DNA from: Pseudobdellovibrionaceae bacterium
GTDB taxonomy: Bacteria; Bdellovibrionota; Bdellovibrionia; Bdellovibrionales; Bdellovibrionaceae
Reading direction: 5' to 3'
DNA: 29,221 nucleotides
Assembly (NCBI GenBank): GCA_043720315.1
Contig: JAYSSX010000639.1
Span: 1 to 29,221, forward strand
Below are positions 2,249 to 9,811 of this stretch, piece by piece. The number at the start of each line of letters is the position of its first letter. Position 1 is the stretch's first letter. Below the pieces are notes generated by a model. It saw only the letters and a program-made list of their open reading frames with translations, was not told the DNA's origin and made no database searches. Made by a program: the position numbers and the translations under genes.

Positions 2249-4429
2249 ATGAAAAAACTACTCGCAATTTTGGGCCTACTGTCAATTGTGTTTACAGCCG
2301 TGCTTAAGCCCCAACCTGCAAAAGCTGCTGATGATCAAATGCATCTTTATGGATCTGCATTTATGGCCATGGCCTCAGGAATACATCCTGACTATGCCAT
2401 TGCAATGTCATTAGGAAATGAAATGATCGACCGTGGAATCTGGACAACTCCAATGGGACTTCCGACTCCTCGCCTTCTATTCCACTTTCTAGGCACTCCT
2501 GCTGATTTTAATGTGGATGAAGGAATTATCCGTCGTGGTTTAGCCATCGCAACTATTAAACATCCACTGTTTTATAACTTGCTACATAAAGGTATGCTCA
2601 CAAAAAACCCCGTAGATCTTGGCAAGGCGCTGCACCTGTTAACTGATACCTTTTACCATGCCGGTTACTCGAATTTACTTGGCCATGGTGAAGGTGGTCA
2701 TCGTCCCGATATGCCTTATGATGAAATCTTAAAAGCGCGTCTTTGTTTTCAAGCGATCGTGGAAGTTCTTTTCATCATCCGCGACATGCAGCCGGGACCA
2801 AAGGACTTTAGCGTGCTAAAAAGAATCGTTGAAGACGTCAGTAAAAATCCTGCTTACGAAAGCAAATTAAAAGTGGTCACTGGCGCAAATACGGTTGACG
2901 GAATCGTTGAGATTCTTGCTCGTCGTCCCGATTTATTTACTCAAGTAGTATTGGATCACCCACAAGTAAGAAACACTTTTTTTACAACCATGGAAAGAAC
3001 TCCTGGCTATCGTAAATTATCAATGAAAGAAATTTTCGGACTTCTTATTAAAAAGGGCTATACAACTTTAAAACCACAAGACTTTGCCGAATTAGCAACC
3101 CAATTTCGTGATCTTTCAGCGCGAACTGATTTGATGCCGATGGATTCTACAAAAATCGTGATCTACCGTTTTTTACAGTTGCAAGATCCTATGCTTAAAC
3201 AACAGGCCGCTGAAGAGCTGAAAACCATTGGTTACGATGCCGCTGAAATGAAGGCAATATTAGACCGTGGTCACTTTGACTTTTCTACATTGGCTGGCTT
3301 TGACGACATGAAAGGTCTTAATGCAGAAATCAACACGAATTATATTAAACATATCGATTCTTTAAGATTCCTAACTACTAATTTGGAAACTTTTATGAGT
3401 CAAATTACCGAAATCGATAGTAACGGAAAAAAATCTTTTCTTCCTTCGTCTCGTTGGCCGCAAGACGTTCGTACTTTTGCCGACACTCTTCTTCCAGATA
3501 TGCTTGCTTGGACTCGCATTATTAATCATGGTGGAGCGATCCGTCTAGAAGAACATCGTGACATCGGAAATCTTTTTTCTACTCAAACCGATGCAGAAGC
3601 TGTTATTAGTTCTATCGATCGTGACCCAAGCTACTTGGAAAACACAGTTGAAATTCTTAAGGGAATCGAATCAAATGCTAAGACTTTAAAAACAGCGGCG
3701 CGTTTAAGAGCGTTGGCGGAGATCGCAAGATCTATTTCCTATGAACTTACTAAAGATATGTTTCCGATGAAAACTTCGGCTGATCATAAAGCTAATTTTG
3801 AAAATGATAAGTTGTCGCATGCTGTATTTGCAAAAGAAAGTCGAATTATGGCGGCTCGTAATTTAATTACGGAATTCTTTAACATCGATATTTTGCGTGG
3901 ACCAGATCCATTCCACGTTTTCGTAAAACAAAAGATGCAGGCCGGCTTCACTCGAATAAAGGGCAAAGTCCCACAAGTCGTTGCTCAGGTGGATGCACAA
4001 GTTGCTGAAATTATGGAATTAGCGCGTGAATTCAATCATTCCATTGGGTTTGGACAAAAAAATGCAGACGGAAAAATAGAACTTCCAATTGATCGTCCAG
4101 ATGTTTTTCGAGTAGCGCCTAACTTAAGCCTTTCAGGTTATCTCTCTTGGACAATGTCTACGTTTCAGTATGTTGGCCGAGTCATGTTAAAGCGTGCCCA
4201 ATCTAAAAACGCTGCAATCATGGGTTACGTTTCTAATGGTGAAAAAATGAAGTCCGAAGTTGTTCAGCAAATTGAACGGCAATATTACAAGCCGACAGAT
4301 TCACAAAAATCTAATTTGTGGAACCTTAAATTCGGTGAAATGAATTCACGTGATGAAGCTCGTAAATCTAAAGTAACAGGCCTTCCAGGAATCGTTCGCT
4401 GTGAAAGCCTTCATATCCGCGCAAAATAA
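2249..4429 (+). CDS. Secreted protein (726 aa) with N-terminal Zn-dependent phospholipase C/P1-nuclease-like (DUF6765-like) domain
   Basis: Sec signal (AKA/ADDQMH). Putative metal ligands: His6 of the mature protein, NEMID, FHF, LHLLTDTFYH and GHGEGGHRPD. SD AGAGGG upstream. Confidence 0.7.
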   Translation: MKKLLAILGLLSIVFTAVLKPQPAKAADDQMHLYGSAFMAMASGIHPDYAIAMSLGNEMIDRGIWTTPMGLPTPRLLFHFLGTPADFNVDEGIIRRGLAIATIKHPLFYNLLHKGMLTKNPVDLGKALHLLTDTFYHAGYSNLLGHGEGGHRPDMPYDEILKARLCFQAIVEVLFIIRDMQPGPKDFSVLKRIVEDVSKNPAYESKLKVVTGANTVDGIVEILARRPDLFTQVVLDHPQVRNTFFTTMERTPGYRKLSMKEIFGLLIKKGYTTLKPQDFAELATQFRDLSARTDLMPMDSTKIVIYRFLQLQDPMLKQQAAEELKTIGYDAAEMKAILDRGHFDFSTLAGFDDMKGLNAEINTNYIKHIDSLRFLTTNLETFMSQITEIDSNGKKSFLPSSRWPQDVRTFADTLLPDMLAWTRIINHGGAIRLEEHRDIGNLFSTQTDAEAVISSIDRDPSYLENTVEILKGIESNAKTLKTAARLRALAEIARSISYELTKDMFPMKTSADHKANFENDKLSHAVFAKESRIMAARNLITEFFNIDILRGPDPFHVFVKQKMQAGFTRIKGKVPQVVAQVDAQVAEIMELAREFNHSIGFGQKNADGKIELPIDRPDVFRVAPNLSLSGYLSWTMSTFQYVGRVMLKRAQSKNAAIMGYVSNGEKMKSEVVQQIERQYYKPTDSQKSNLWNLKFGEMNSRDEARKSKVTGLPGIVRCESLHIRAK

Positions 4430-4436
4430 AATCCGA

Positions 4437-4490
4437 TCCGTGACTTTTGATTGAGTACAATCAGTTCGAAATCACGGAAGTTTTATTTAA
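4437..4490 (+). terminator. Probable intrinsic terminator
   Basis: Outer stem TCCGTGA/TCACGGA, inner stem TGATTG-AGTA-CAATCA, followed by AGTTTTATTT just after the stop at 4429. Confidence 0.6.
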
Positions 4491-4570
4491 ATTTTTTCTA
4501 TCAGAGTTTGTCGAACTTTTTTACGTTAATGGACTATCTATTACTTTTTTACCTGTAAAAATCCTAACAG

Positions 4571-4599
4571 TTTAGATTACAACCATTTGCTACTATACT
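4571..4599 (+). promoter_or_regulatory. Candidate sigma70 promoter for the CDS at 4633
   Basis: TTTAGA-N17-TATACT; SD AGGAG at 4622-4626. Confidence 0.4.
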
Positions 4600-4632
4600 C
4601 CTGGCTGAATTACCCCCTACCAGGAGTACTAA

Positions 4633-6528
4633 ATGCGATCCCCGACGATACATAAAAAGGCCATCACTATGGCTTTAGTTGCGGCTTTAATTACGCCAGT
4701 AACATCCATACAAACACAGGCCGCCAGCAAAACTGGCCACAAGAAAGCTAAAAATCTGATCGAGCGATTAGTTGGATTTGACGTCCACTTGGCGCAGTTT
4801 GGATCTAATGTAAATCAAATGGTAGATGAAGTTCCCTTATCTGCAGCGACTCAGTCGGGAATGGCCTCAGACAAGCTGCACTTTCCAGCCGTTAAAACTC
4901 CGTCTGACTTAAAGAATGGCGATCTTCTTAATATCCAAAATAACAATGGTAAACGCACCCTAATGGGCGCAGTAAAGTCATTTGTGGTAACCAGCTCTAC
5001 GCTTCGTGGTGTGGGTGCCTTAGGCAATGCTGAGGGCTTTGAAATGGCTGCGCAGTCCTTAGACAAGGGTAATGCCACTGGCTTTTTTATGGGAATGCAC
5101 TACGCCATGGATATGAGCGCTTTATTTCATGATGGTTACTTAGGATCTCTAAATGCTCCTATCCCAGGATTAAACCGATTTCTAAAAGTGCCCTTGGGTC
5201 ATTTGGTCGACGGAACTTCTCCTGATGAACTAACCGTTGCTAAAATCTATTTCATGCTGGAAAACCTAGGTCCTTTCTTAATCGCATTTCGCGAGGCCCA
5301 AAACGGAGTCGGCGTAGACAACGTTTGGTTAGAACATCTAAAAGCTCAGGGCGTAAATGTAATGGATGCGAGCGCTATTGCAACATGGTTTTTCAAACAA
5401 AAAGAAATCGAACAAGTATTACGCCAAGAACTTCGCGGCGACCGTGTAGATCCTTATGTTGACTCAGTATTAACAGATCTTCGCTTTGCACTTACTGAAT
5501 TAGGATTTATTTCTGAAGAAAATTACAAATATATGGACGAGAATCTTGCGTTGATTAAAACACGAATGCAAAAAGCCCGTTTAGATATGAACGAATCGGT
5601 ACATTTGATCGACTTAGTTAAAGAATTTGCCAATCAAGCATGGAAAGACGGAAAATTTAACGAGCCAAACGTCATCGCCGAAACTACAACTGATTATCGC
5701 GGAAAATACGAGGCGACTCAAAGATTAGATCAGTTGATCATCGAGCCCAGCTATTTGAATCCGGCTATGCCACAGTATGTTCGTGATTCCGTAGAAGCAG
5801 GTTTAATGTCAAAATCAACGAATGCTCCTTATACACGCGGTTGGATTTTAGATCAGATCACTGAAAAATTAACTCGCGGAATGTTACATTCGCGTTGGTC
5901 AAAATTCAATTATGCTTTTTACAATGAAGACGTTAAGGCCGCCAAGGCCCAAGCCGAAACCGATGCCATTGATAAAATGGAAATGATCCTTTTCAAAAAT
6001 AAATCGATTTATATGTATGAAAATCCAAAAATGGTGTATTGGAATAAAGTATTTAAAACTTACTGGTCATTAACAATCGATGAACGTGGAAATTCATTAT
6101 TTAGAAAAGCGATTTCATTTTTCCGTGTGATTCTAGCTACCGAATTATTTCCGGGTTATGACATTCACAATCCCCGATTTACAACAAAAGTAGAGATTTT
6201 CTTTAAGACGATTGGATACCTCTTTAGCGAGGAACTAAAAAATCCTTTAACGACCAAAGGAAATTTAGCCGTGCGTTTTGATGATGTCAGGGATCGCTTG
6301 ATCAAAGAAATCAGAGTCAAATATCCAGATGGAATTATGACGGAAGCGACTTTGGCAAAAAATCGTGATCACTTTGTCACCGTCCAGTCCAGATACAATG
6401 ACAGTAATCAACGTTCGGGCCTAATCCAAAAAACCGCTGGCTTCATTGTCGATAAAGTCGATACACGTGATGCAAAGAAAAATAGCGTAAACCTAAGTCT
6501 ACGCTGCGAAAATGTTCATTTGAAATAA
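4633..6528 (+). CDS. Secreted protein (631 aa), paralogue of 2249..4429, with a Zn-PLC/P1-like N-terminal domain
   Basis: Sec signal (TQA/ASKTGH). Motifs NQMVD, LHF, MHYAMDMSALFH and GHLVDGTSPD align with the neighbouring gene. Confidence 0.7.
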   Translation: MRSPTIHKKAITMALVAALITPVTSIQTQAASKTGHKKAKNLIERLVGFDVHLAQFGSNVNQMVDEVPLSAATQSGMASDKLHFPAVKTPSDLKNGDLLNIQNNNGKRTLMGAVKSFVVTSSTLRGVGALGNAEGFEMAAQSLDKGNATGFFMGMHYAMDMSALFHDGYLGSLNAPIPGLNRFLKVPLGHLVDGTSPDELTVAKIYFMLENLGPFLIAFREAQNGVGVDNVWLEHLKAQGVNVMDASAIATWFFKQKEIEQVLRQELRGDRVDPYVDSVLTDLRFALTELGFISEENYKYMDENLALIKTRMQKARLDMNESVHLIDLVKEFANQAWKDGKFNEPNVIAETTTDYRGKYEATQRLDQLIIEPSYLNPAMPQYVRDSVEAGLMSKSTNAPYTRGWILDQITEKLTRGMLHSRWSKFNYAFYNEDVKAAKAQAETDAIDKMEMILFKNKSIYMYENPKMVYWNKVFKTYWSLTIDERGNSLFRKAISFFRVILATELFPGYDIHNPRFTTKVEIFFKTIGYLFSEELKNPLTTKGNLAVRFDDVRDRLIKEIRVKYPDGIMTEATLAKNRDHFVTVQSRYNDSNQRSGLIQKTAGFIVDKVDTRDAKKNSVNLSLRCENVHLK

Positions 6529-6586: not shown

Positions 6587-7522
6587 TTACTGAAGAACTA
6601 GATTCTGCGCCAACTGGGCGTAGAATCTATCTTGTTCTCGCTTAATATAATCTAGGTTCAACACACCTAAAGGGAAAAATAAACGGTGATCCACCACTTG
6701 TTCCCAGTGCTCCAGATGCGCATAATCTTTCATTAACTTTGGTGTAATATTTCGGCCGGATTTTGAAATAAAATTTTTCACCGCAAAAGCCGAATCCCAA
6801 GTCACAATACCATCTGATGCTGTATCTCCGCCCAAAGCATCCGTTACCATCAGTACTGAACTTAATTGTTTGGCATCAAACCAAAGAAGCCCCGGTGACT
6901 GAAAACCACCATAAACTTGTACTGACAAATCATCAGGTACTTTTAACTTATTCATAAAATCAGTTATATTTTTGCGATTTAATTCAAGAAGATTTCCTAA
7001 ACTGATCCACTGAAGAAGATAATCAATTTTTGAAGCAAAGTCTTCAACATTATCTAAAAATCGAAGTCCAGAATAAGGAGTACTAATTGTTACAATTTTA
7101 GTAATCGGTAAATTAGTTTTCCCCGAAGCGTATAATGAATATAATCCACCAGCACTATGGCACACTAGGTACATTTTTTGATCAGCCCGCAATTTGCTTT
7201 GAATGCTGGTTAAAAAATGAATCAGAAGTTCGCCATTAACGGCGATGCCACCAATAGGTTTTAAATTATTCACTACATAAACATCAAAACCTTGTGCTTG
7301 GATTGCGGCTGAAATCGAACGGCTAAAATACGGATCCTTCCAAGGATTTCCCGACTCATTGGGCGCAGGAATACTGGGCGCCAAAGAGTTAAAAAAACCT
7401 GGAACCAAAACAACAACATCCCGTTTCAAATTCTTAACATTTCCTGGATAAAATTGTGCATTTGCTAAAAAAGAAAAACACAAACTGAACAGGATCAAAA
7501 CGGATTTAAAATATTTCTTCAT
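6587..7522 (-). CDS. Secreted alpha/beta hydrolase (lipase/esterase, PGAP1-like)
   Basis: Signal peptide; oxyanion motif VLVPGF; nucleophile elbow CHSAGG; STPYSG; SDGIV (Asp); HLEHWE (His). SD GGGGAGGG. Confidence 0.85.
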   Translation of the reverse strand: MKKYFKSVLILFSLCFSFLANAQFYPGNVKNLKRDVVVLVPGFFNSLAPSIPAPNESGNPWKDPYFSRSISAAIQAQGFDVYVVNNLKPIGGIAVNGELLIHFLTSIQSKLRADQKMYLVCHSAGGLYSLYASGKTNLPITKIVTISTPYSGLRFLDNVEDFASKIDYLLQWISLGNLLELNRKNITDFMNKLKVPDDLSVQVYGGFQSPGLLWFDAKQLSSVLMVTDALGGDTASDGIVTWDSAFAVKNFISKSGRNITPKLMKDYAHLEHWEQVVDHRLFFPLGVLNLDYIKREQDRFYAQLAQNLVLQ

Positions 7523-7729: not shown

Positions 7730-9811
7730 CTAGGCACCAAAACCCAGCCAGTTAAAAACGGGTGCTTCTTCAACTTGTGAAGGATCTTCTTTCAAATACA
7801 AATCAATGTATGTTGTATATGTCGGCTTAATTTTAGCGGTAATTTTTCGACTGTAAAGTCCCGGCAAACTCAAAGTGAAACTCAAAGGAATTCCGGCATC
7901 AAGAATGGCTCTGGCCTCTGCCTCACGACCAGGCTTTGGATAAGCTCGACCCATAAGAACAATTCGAATTTCTTTAGAGTTTTTGTACTTCTTTATCGTA
8001 GCAAATGAACTCATAAACTGACTTCGTCTTCCAACTTGGTGAATAAAGGGATCGGATTCAGTATCAACGCGACTTTGAAGTTTTGAATCATCACTTTCTA
8101 CATTCTTGATCGACGGATCGTTCATAAATTTTTTGATGTGATTCAAATCGTTTTGTGTCATTTCGTAACTAAGCGGAACACGTACGTTTAAAGTTAAGAT
8201 GTAAGTTCCTAACTCGTCTCTCAATAAATTACTGTCCGTTGATCGCGCTGATGCATTAGTCACATTAAAGTATTTATTTACTAAATCCTGATCGCAATTT
8301 ACGTTTGATCCTGCTTCACATTTAGTCAACGTTTGAATGACATGTTTGAAATTAGGATGTTTACAAGTTGCAGGATCGGCACATTCTTTATTCATAATAA
8401 CGACGTCAACGCCTAACCCCTCTGCAAAGTCTGTCATAGCTTTTGCCGCATCTGTACCGACACCACCTGCGGCCATTAAAGCCGGCGAAATCGTGGCATG
8501 CATATTTTCAACAAAAATTTCTTGGTTATTTACAGAAGATTTTTTTTCCAAATCAAAAGTGTTTGCGAACTGGTTCATCGTAATTGGCTTTTGTTCCGAA
8601 CCTTCTGGTTCTACGTAATATAAAAAGTCGGCAACTGCATTTGGTCCCTCAACCGGACCGTCTGCTTCCAAACGTTTCACACCAGCGAAAACACTAACTA
8701 AACCATCATTTAACTGTTTATAAGCAGGGGTTGTAAAGCCATTACAAGTGACTCCTTTGTCCGTCTTCTGCATACAAGGGAATACTCCCACGATGCTAGT
8801 CCATCTTGTTTTAAAGCGATTTCGTAAAGACTCGTCTGATAAATGCTTGATTCGACCTAAACGCATCAAGTGAATTGTTTCACTAGTTGGGCGCATATTA
8901 TCGAATTCAAGTGGATGCAGATTTCCAATTTTTGCATTCTTCGCCGCCATTCCTATAACGCCGGATGCTGCTCCAAGCGCTTTCAAAATTGCAGCAGTAC
9001 CCAGTCCACCTTTTTCAAGGCTATTGATATTGTTACAAGCGGCTTTTACGCTGGCATTTATGGAATTTAATTGTCTGGTGGCTTGCGGTAAAGATTTCTC
9101 AGCTCCACTTTGGATACTTTTTGCATACTTAATTAAATCTACTTTTGACGTAATACTAGCGATTTCTGGAAGTCGGCAAAAAGCTTGCAGCTTTGGAATT
9201 GTTCGTTCCAATTGCGAAGTGTCACCTTGACCGATGAATCCCCAACCCAACTCTGCCATTACTGATCCCCAGAAAACCGGACCTAAACCAATGACATTAT
9301 CCACTTTTGATAAAACGTTTTTTAAAGTTTCATACTCAGCAGCAGTATATTTTTTTTGCGGACCTAAAAAATTATGCATGGTATCGTAGTACCAAGTCAT
9401 GGTCATCATACCACCCATTGAATACGCAAGAATGGATATTTTATCATTCGGACCCAAATAAGGAATTTGTGCTTTTGGCCCGATGAAAAAATCGCGATTT
9501 AATTTTTGTCCGATTGAGTGTGGATCCCAATTAAAGCCGTCTCCCTCGACTGCTGCGCCCACCGGATAAGTCCAATTGTAAGTTTTTACCTCGATACTTG
9601 GATCAATTTTTTGCAAGACACCAGCCACAAATTCATGAAATTCACCGTAGGATTCTACATTTCCACGCACACCATGCAAGGTAATGACGTGATGAGTTCC
9701 ACCTCTATTTTGAGCAATGTTGTTAGTTGCAGGCGTACGTATACTTTCGCTTGTACATGCCGTTAAAACAGCAGCACAAACCATAACTAGTAACATAAAT
9801 AACGTTTTCAT
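7730..9811 (-). CDS. Large lipoprotein alpha/beta hydrolase (lipase-like, 693 aa)
   Basis: Lipobox LTAC; HVITLHGVRG; AYSMGG nucleophile elbow; GPVFWGS; EADGPV; ENMHA; many Cys. SD GGAGG. Confidence 0.8.
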   Translation of the reverse strand: MKTLFMLLVMVCAAVLTACTSESIRTPATNNIAQNRGGTHHVITLHGVRGNVESYGEFHEFVAGVLQKIDPSIEVKTYNWTYPVGAAVEGDGFNWDPHSIGQKLNRDFFIGPKAQIPYLGPNDKISILAYSMGGMMTMTWYYDTMHNFLGPQKKYTAAEYETLKNVLSKVDNVIGLGPVFWGSVMAELGWGFIGQGDTSQLERTIPKLQAFCRLPEIASITSKVDLIKYAKSIQSGAEKSLPQATRQLNSINASVKAACNNINSLEKGGLGTAAILKALGAASGVIGMAAKNAKIGNLHPLEFDNMRPTSETIHLMRLGRIKHLSDESLRNRFKTRWTSIVGVFPCMQKTDKGVTCNGFTTPAYKQLNDGLVSVFAGVKRLEADGPVEGPNAVADFLYYVEPEGSEQKPITMNQFANTFDLEKKSSVNNQEIFVENMHATISPALMAAGGVGTDAAKAMTDFAEGLGVDVVIMNKECADPATCKHPNFKHVIQTLTKCEAGSNVNCDQDLVNKYFNVTNASARSTDSNLLRDELGTYILTLNVRVPLSYEMTQNDLNHIKKFMNDPSIKNVESDDSKLQSRVDTESDPFIHQVGRRSQFMSSFATIKKYKNSKEIRIVLMGRAYPKPGREAEARAILDAGIPLSFTLSLPGLYSRKITAKIKPTYTTYIDLYLKEDPSQVEEAPVFNWLGFGA

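Follow-up and report, generated by a model that had tools for sequence, protein, structure and literature searches.

Here, we analyzed a stretch of 29,221 nucleotides (nt) from a Pseudobdellovibrionaceae bacterium of the Bdellovibrio-like predatory lineage in the phylum Bdellovibrionota (contig JAYSSX010000639.1 of assembly GCA_043720315.1; hereafter the window), in which two adjacent genes on the same strand encode proteins of 726 and 631 amino acids (aa) that both have signal-peptide-like N-termini and both end in a short tail built around a cysteine. As judged from sequence comparisons, this tail is a real, conserved and modular feature of a few exported protein families across Bdellovibrionota. 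Our leading, though tentative, explanation is that it may be a modular tag: a docking helix would bring it to a shared partner, and a covalent bond formed by its thiol would keep the protein tethered or retained. The window corresponds to contig C639 of our draft genome G000, which consists of 698 contigs and is 80.7% complete.

A preliminary description of the window had proposed that the two tails represent a new sorting or anchoring signal. Both tails read as quoted there, with true spans of 4391-4426 and 6496-6525; the ranges first given (4397-4426 and 6502-6525) open with the Arg that precedes the Cys and are thus 6 nt short at their start. The claim that the 631-aa protein has no other Cys also holds (Cys625 only), while the 726-aa protein contains two, C166 and C718. 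The preceding ~100 residues were said to share little, in agreement with a best BLASTP alignment between the two proteins that is the tail region itself (E 0.079), nothing else being found. Comparison of the two family alignments by hhalign revealed that the families are remotely homologous, but over their N-terminal ~180-220 residues only (87% probability, E 3.9e-6, query 1-183), and the window proteins thus appear to be old, remote paralogs in tandem. Because of this kinship, the pair alone cannot show that the tail is a portable tag.

Additional carriers were identified in the same genome. The pattern C-[ED]-x-[LIVMF]-H was present within the last 20 residues of 4 of the 3744 open reading frames (ORFs) called mechanically, vs 0.46 expected from its internal rate, and looser tail patterns yielded additional carrier candidates. 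Besides the two window proteins, which end in ..RCESLHIRAK (726 aa) and ..RCENVHLK (631 aa) and have no assigned function, the carriers include a 740-aa protein in which a signal peptide precedes a cytidylyltransferase/NMNAT-like core (C84; ..RCEKVHLLGA), a 472-aa protein without a Pfam family whose model has an IucA-like fold (C39; ..RACHLVHL), a small 238-aa protein, also without a Pfam family (C513; ..SCMHLF), and a fragment open at its contig start (C598; ..SCESIHIR), for which 250 other genomes yielded no homolog. Signal peptides aside, C84, C39, C513, the C598 fragment and the 631-aa protein contain no Cys but that of the tail, and in hhalign comparisons the 740-aa family proved unrelated to those of 726 and 631 aa (probability 0.2% and 2.1%, respectively). 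Confinement to the two paralogs had been named beforehand as the observation that would speak against a tag; what we found instead was the tail on at least three further unrelated exported families in this genome.

The tail Cys was kept in every homolog counted, that is, in all complete sequences collected per family, with identity to the query down to about 25-31%. In the protein database it was present in 12/12 members of the 726-aa family (5-9 residues from the end) and 5/5 members of the 631-aa family (5-10 residues), the homologs being 37-51% identical, as well as in 23/23 members of the 740-aa family (5-19 residues). The C39 family was found in 77 of 401 genomes of the phylum, and all 29 fetched homologs with a complete C-terminus (the open-ended ORF L030 was left out) had the Cys 6-19 residues from the end; its alignment column is invariant though the sequences are only 25-31% identical to the query. 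For C513, found in 3 of 301 genomes, the count was 3/3 (5-7 residues), and the two foreign homologs end in ..NCKKLFE and ..QCRAIFSE, each with this Cys as its only one. Terminal cysteines are not conserved by default, as indicated by the C179 family (..DLDCEVVYAQ), which was tried as a further carrier, rejected and used as a negative control: its terminal Cys, located in a conserved structural motif, is absent from 26 of 29 foreign homologs, most of which have Ala at this position.

A wider view was obtained from the superfamily to which the window proteins belong. An exhaustive profile search with the 726-aa family yielded 132 representatives matching its N-terminal domain. Among the 99 representatives of at least 450 aa, the last Cys lies 5-20 residues from the end in 42, vs 6.9 expected when the same cysteines are placed uniformly; 28 of these 42 fit C-x-x-hydrophobic-hydrophobic and 25 have a sole Cys. 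Since the tail is present in 42 and absent from the other 57, it is an optional addition to exported members of the superfamily, one of which has no Cys at all. The phylum's full-length DUF6765 proteins are leaderless, about 370 aa long and without the tail. One homolog of the 726-aa family (P0004) matches ~40 of the 325 positions of DUF6765 (PF20551; 33.7 bits); membership of the window proteins themselves in DUF6765 was rejected, neither having any Pfam match at E up to 0.1. As a separate observation, six of the seven leaderless full-length DUF6765 proteins inspected in the phylum (loci L057, L058, L060, L062, L064 and L065) end in ..I-C-[VI]-[AS], with the Cys third from the end. These proteins are apparently cytoplasmic, and their conserved C-terminal Cys motif is distinct from the tail.

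The tail is associated with export. All carriers have Sec signal peptides, as judged by eye or by a crude rule, and a more specific comparison is offered by the relatives of the N-terminal domain of the 740-aa family, which came from 16 of the 401 genomes (signal peptides assigned by eye; partial ORF L022 left out). A Cys lies 7-18 residues from the end in 6/6 full-length relatives that bear a signal peptide, vs a Cys within the last 50 residues in 0/9 leaderless relatives of about 210-395 aa.

The anatomy of the tail was derived from four families with 67 tails in total. In every tail the Cys lies 5-19 residues before the C-terminus and is thus followed by 4-18 residues; position -1 is mostly R, S or K, and +1 is often E. 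Hydrophobic residues are frequent at +3 (76%), +4 (90%), +7 (58%) and +8 (51%), and rarer at +1, +2, +5 and +6 (27%, 22%, 41% and 43%), with Phe at +4 in 48% of the tails. Peaks spaced in this way are those of an amphipathic helix that bears the Cys on its hydrophobic side. No uncharged run downstream of the Cys exceeds 9 residues, a basic cluster (two or more R/K in the last five residues) occurs in only 5 of the 67 tails, and the stretch before the Cys varies in length and sequence within the family alignments. The general core may be written as C-x-x-hydrophobic-(F or other hydrophobic), preceded by [R/K/S] and a variable linker and followed by another 0-14 residues. Structural modeling of C39 (predicted local distance difference test, pLDDT, 82.9; predicted TM-score 0.85) placed the tail at the end of a last helix (residues 448-471) that is confident to about residue 460 and then drops to a pLDDT of ~53 (461-470), with values <50 at 466-468 around Cys467, which suggests that the tail is not packed into the fold. 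The best explanation of these features is that the tail Cys sits on the hydrophobic side of a short helix (one to three turns) that ends the protein and lies outside the folded core.

The motif had originally been described as R-C-E-x-[LV]-H-[IL]. This form is real within the genus under study, but it appears to be a local dialect (R-C-E-x-[LIV]-H-[LI]) of the more general core, which elsewhere is C-x-x-hydrophobic-F or has another hydrophobic residue at this site, the His not being conserved. His occupies +4 in 5 of the 6 carrier families of this genus vs 2 of 66 foreign tails (Fisher p 8.8e-6, a value that is overstated because the foreign tails are related to one another), whereas Phe is found in 34 of the 66. 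The His content of the proteome is not high (1.9%). Synonymous codon choice differs among the six tail-coding stretches, and their flanks are unrelated, which excludes recent copying of tail DNA between genes and implies that the shift to His arose separately in each gene. A concerted change at +4 in unrelated proteins of one genus suggests a shared recognition partner, with several clients following one reader. A heme-type C-x-x-x-H or Cys/His metal site was also considered and rejected, because 64 of the 66 foreign tails have Phe or an aliphatic residue in place of the His. The sister genome keeps the His, its ortholog ending in ..RCENIHIRAK.

Several features of the other carriers are of interest in their own right. 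The 740-aa protein (C84:1887-4109, + strand; loci L007-L021) joins an N-terminal domain, which also stands alone in leaderless proteins of about 390 aa, to a cytidylyltransferase/NMNAT-like HxGH core, and an exported nucleotidyltransferase, as predicted here, is unusual. The C39 carrier (C39:2653-4071, + strand; loci L023-L052) belongs to an exported family, some members of which have a lipoprotein-type signal (..LLSCQ..). Its model resembles the NIS synthetases IucA and AcsD (Foldseek E 8.7e-13, probability 1.00, TM-score 0.49 by query), and on this structural similarity the protein is assigned the predicted NIS synthetase (IucA/IucC) fold, with no Pfam match at the sequence level. The gene directly after the C513 carrier (C513:977-1834, + strand) encodes a 285-aa signal-peptide protein with 8 Cys that ends in ..KAGCLLPH, the Cys being fifth from the end.

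How the tail might work can be outlined as follows. The carriers would first be exported by Sec; the short amphipathic element would then dock on a shared partner that co-evolves with the tail, and the invariant thiol would form a covalent bond, most likely a disulfide, with an anchor, a carrier or another subunit. Such a link would tether or retain the enzyme in the envelope of the predator until its release. What the data show is the presence of the tail, its modularity and conservation, its association with export and the concerted shift in one genus; we infer the partner, the thiol chemistry and the effect on location. Three DsbA-like thioredoxin-fold genes in the genome make periplasmic disulfide formation plausible. 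In addition, a Cys-type C-terminal tag in Myxococcus retains its protein on the cell, TraA being released without it (PMC11980579), and a Sec signal peptide alone sufficed for release of a NanoLuc reporter into the supernatant of Bdellovibrio bacteriovorus, the main text of the corresponding study making no mention of a C-terminal signal (PMC12622784). Taken together, these two reports favor tethering or retention over an export signal, and the suggestion of a lineage-specific export route in the preliminary description becomes the less likely one. Its broader idea of a targeting tag fared better: the tail is modular, its Cys is kept across the phylum behind a variable linker, and it is not packed in the C39 model, although only about 5-6 proteins per genome carry it and no cognate enzyme was found.

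A number of observations weigh against a dedicated tag of this kind. Genome-wide, a sole Cys within the last 12 residues was found in 14 ORFs vs 17.1 expected, and a sole terminal Cys among ORFs with a signal-peptide-like start in 7 vs 7.2 expected; the loose motif C-x-x-hydrophobic-hydrophobic was not enriched on terminal cysteines (34 vs 30.8), and a matrix trained on the foreign tails alone recovered just three known families in the genome. With no general excess of terminal cysteines, the case rests on family-by-family conservation, and the tail set is small. In the C39 members of lipoprotein type with three Cys, the aligned 'invariant' Cys is the one at -24/-25, and another lies at -11/-12. 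No ORF family recurs beside the tail genes in 39 loci, carriers and antisense shadow ORFs excepted, and no match to DsbB was found in the genome at its 80.7% completeness. The sister genome (G001) has no C39 homolog and only a fragment of the 740-aa family, thus offering no further carriers to confirm the His dialect. It should also be considered that ORFs were called mechanically and that signal peptides were assigned by a crude rule or by eye from sequence and alignment.

The alternative that survives best, although we regard it as unlikely, is that the tail is an ordinary structural element in each family, either an intramolecular disulfide (C166-C718 in the 726-aa protein) or a homodimer staple, and that the likeness among families is convergence without any common partner. 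Part of the evidence fits this well and counts against the tag. In the 726-aa family the number of mature-protein Cys is always even (odd in 0/11 members) and C166 is nearly invariant, so that an ordinary intramolecular disulfide is possible there; the model of this family is weak (pLDDT 61.6, with the last 21 residues, 706-726, <50). In the 631-aa family a second Cys occurs in 3/5 members (odd counts in 2/5). The small set per genome, the lack of general enrichment and the predicted continuation of the last C39 helix (448-471) into the tail also agree with a structural role, as does the fact that solved relatives with the NIS-synthetase fold are oligomers. On the other hand, the tail Cys is the sole Cys in most members of the 740-aa, C39 and C513 families and cannot pair within the chain there; in the 740-aa family this is the case for 19/22 mature proteins, and odd counts are found in 19/22 members of that family and 28/29 members of the C39 family. 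The variable linker length and the leaderless homologs without the tail Cys are likewise at odds with a structural element, and the same change from F to H in five unrelated families of one genus is hard to explain without a common reader.

A lipid anchor comparable to the CAAX box or MYXO-CTERM appears rather improbable to us. Here, the Cys would be S-lipidated in the periplasm, the trailing residues would be trimmed by a CPBP/Rce1-like protease, and the C-terminal lipid would hold the enzyme on the membrane or on vesicles. The invariant Cys and the short, mostly hydrophobic stretch of 4-18 residues after it do resemble a cleaved-off remainder, and three CPBP/Rce1-like genes (PF02517) are present in the genome. 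The processing proposed for known bacterial Cys-type C-terminal signals consists of lipidation and subsequent cutting by a CPBP protease, and one protease superfamily is noted to serve both the long signals and the short CAAX signal (preprint 10.1101/2023.06.07.544157 for both points; PMC11980579 for the first). Against such an anchor, the tail has no membrane helix and no lipobox-like context, and an Arg cluster is as rare as noted above. CPBP family matches are nearly ubiquitous (11 of 14 control genomes), no CPBP gene adjoins a carrier gene in the 39 loci, and the tail is retained even in C39 members with a lipoprotein signal at their N-terminus.

The relationship to MYXO-CTERM-type signals (TIGR03901) deserves a closer look, since both have an invariant C-terminal Cys, occur on unrelated Sec-exported proteins, are lineage-specific and mark a set of proteins per genome. 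MYXO-CTERM-type signals are tripartite, with a motif, a transmembrane helix and an Arg cluster, and serve surface retention (preprint 10.1101/2023.06.07.544157; PMC11980579). Unlike them, the tail described here is too short for a transmembrane segment and lacks the Arg-rich C-terminal cluster; TIGR03901 gave no match in the genome at E up to 1, and no NCBIfam sorting-signal model matched the three carriers scanned (E up to 1). Identity with MYXO-CTERM was rejected on both architectural grounds and on the absence of a model match. The likeness to the CAAX box lies in a very short C-terminal Cys motif with aliphatic residues after the Cys and no membrane helix, and the Rce1 family also occurs in bacteria, three members being those of this genome. 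In the eukaryotic CAAX box the Cys is fourth from the end and the modification is cytosolic, whereas the tail Cys is never fourth in the 67 tails and the carriers are exported; the tail is therefore not a CAAX box.

The analogy to GlyGly-CTERM or to the C-terminal domain (CTD) of the type IX secretion system (T9SS), drawn in the preliminary description, could not be maintained. Both are C-terminal signals on Sec-exported enzymes, in which respect the tail is similar. The signal of the GlyGly-CTERM/rhombosortase system is composed of a Gly-Gly motif, a membrane helix and basic residues, and that of the T9SS folds into a domain some 70-100 residues long, whereas the tail has <20 residues, no membrane-length helix and no Pfam/NCBIfam match. 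GlyGly-CTERM was rejected because its defining features, including the membrane helix and the Arg cluster, are absent from the tail; the T9SS CTD (Por_Secre_tail) was rejected because no T9SS-like domain was matched in the C-terminal regions and the element is short and placed behind a variable linker. The working principle that we propose is closer to that of the interchain disulfides of AB toxins and of the tailpiece Cys by which immunoglobulins M and A (IgM/IgA) are retained and assembled in the endoplasmic reticulum, in which a terminal or interchain disulfide holds or assembles a protein until release. By analogy, a lone Cys on a short terminal tail might act similarly in an oxidizing compartment; those systems, by contrast, belong to eukaryotes or toxins and are not related to the tail in sequence, and the partner here is a proposed one. 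Searches of full-text papers revealed no C-terminal signal described for the Bdellovibrio-like group.

We also considered that the tail might be a signal for outer-membrane translocation or delivery, by which folded periplasmic enzymes would be sent to a secretion machine (e.g., a type II system) or into prey, and found this quite unlikely. The Sec signal peptides of all carriers are compatible with it, and the two nucleotide-using folds (NMNAT-like and IucA-like) may fit an ATP-containing compartment such as the prey cytoplasm. However, recognition needs no invariant Cys, and the tail is present on very few proteins while predators of this type export many hydrolases. In addition, the reporter released from B. 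bacteriovorus by a signal peptide alone and the myxobacterial Cys tag that serves retention rather than export both argue against translocation (PMC12622784; PMC11980579). The least probable alternative is a latency or redox switch, in which the terminal thiol would, like a cysteine switch, block or regulate the active site of its own enzyme until reduction, oxidation or cleavage of the tail: a Cys on a flexible terminal tail behind a linker, the richness of the N-terminal domain of the window proteins in conserved His and Asp, and the known need of Bdellovibrio for self-protection against its own enzymes (PMC4686830) would suit such a switch, but the carrier folds and presumably their active sites are unrelated, the models predict no docking of the tail onto the domain, and the concerted shift in one genus points to a common external reader.

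The features of the window pair are listed in Table 1. The fold of the two proteins gave no sequence match in PDB (best E 0.2), no Foldseek match (best E 0.011, TM-score about 0.1) and nothing usable in the ESM Atlas, and for the 631-aa protein no Pfam or NCBIfam family was above cut-off. The mature N-terminus of the exported superfamily (A-Y-D-x-D-T-H..) may resemble that of zinc phospholipase C or nuclease P1. The distribution of the window genes is patchy: among 41 related genomes (compared G002-G040) they were found only in their own and the sister genome, with one further weak N-terminal match in G036, and homologs at 37-51% identity occur in metagenome-derived protein sets. For synteny and tail flavor in distant genomes, two metagenome scans gave nothing and a genome-collection scan gave only the sister genome.

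Table 1. Positions of the two tail-carrying genes and their parts in the window
Feature	Position	Strand	Basis
Gene of 726-aa exported protein, function not assigned, tail carrier	2249..4429	+	ORF; 12 database homologs including itself
Probable Sec signal peptide of 726-aa protein (residues 1-26, AKA then ADD)	2249..2326	+	Sequence and alignment; A26-A27-D28 nearly invariant
N-terminal region of 726-aa protein (residues 1-183), common with 631-aa family	2249..2797	+	hhalign of alignments A1 vs A2
Cys166 codon, second Cys of 726-aa protein, nearly invariant in family; possible disulfide partner of tail Cys	2744..2746	+	
C-terminal tail IVRCESLHIRAK of 726-aa protein; Cys718 codon 4400-4402	4391..4426	+	C718 invariant in 12/12 homologs
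Gene of 631-aa exported protein, function not assigned, tail carrier	4633..6528	+	ORF; 5 database homologs including itself
Probable signal peptide of 631-aa protein (about residues 1-31, cleavage site uncertain)	4633..4725	+	Sequence and alignment; A30 and A31 invariant
N-terminal region of 631-aa protein (residues 1-224), homologous to that of 726-aa family	4633..5304	+	hhalign template range 1-222/224
C-terminal tail SLRCENVHLK of 631-aa protein; Cys625 codon 6505-6507	6496..6525	+	C625 invariant in 5/5 homologs

Exported proteins are abundant around the pair. Downstream of it, on the minus strand, lie genes for a 311-aa alpha/beta-hydrolase with a signal peptide (6587-7522; matches to DUF915, Abhydrolase_1 and DUF676) and for a 693-aa lipoprotein-like protein without a Pfam match (7730-9811). 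A terminator-like hairpin with a stem of 13 base pairs (6599-6629, + strand) is found ~70 nt past the stop codon of the 631-aa gene; it sits inside the 3' end of the convergent hydrolase gene, and the number of hairpins in the region equals chance expectation.

The tail bears on the question of how predatory bacteria hold back, place and release their exported enzymes. A more far-reaching form of the tethering hypothesis, which we consider speculative and rather unlikely, is that Bdellovibrionota have a post-export pathway of their own, in which the Cys-tail and a dedicated partner would park a small set of nucleotide-using effectors covalently (by disulfide or lipid) on the envelope until the predator touches or enters the reducing prey interior, where they would be set free. 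If true, bacteria would have an equivalent of thiol-mediated retention or of the disulfide that joins the chains of AB toxins. The tail also draws attention to a set of exported proteins that have folds of the ATP or NAD type and a possible role in predation. If it is a real tag, the catalog of Cys-type C-terminal signals would be extended to a form without a membrane helix, and an element of <20 residues with a single essential-looking thiol, present on unrelated exported enzymes, would give a direct handle on the control of their retention, placement and release.

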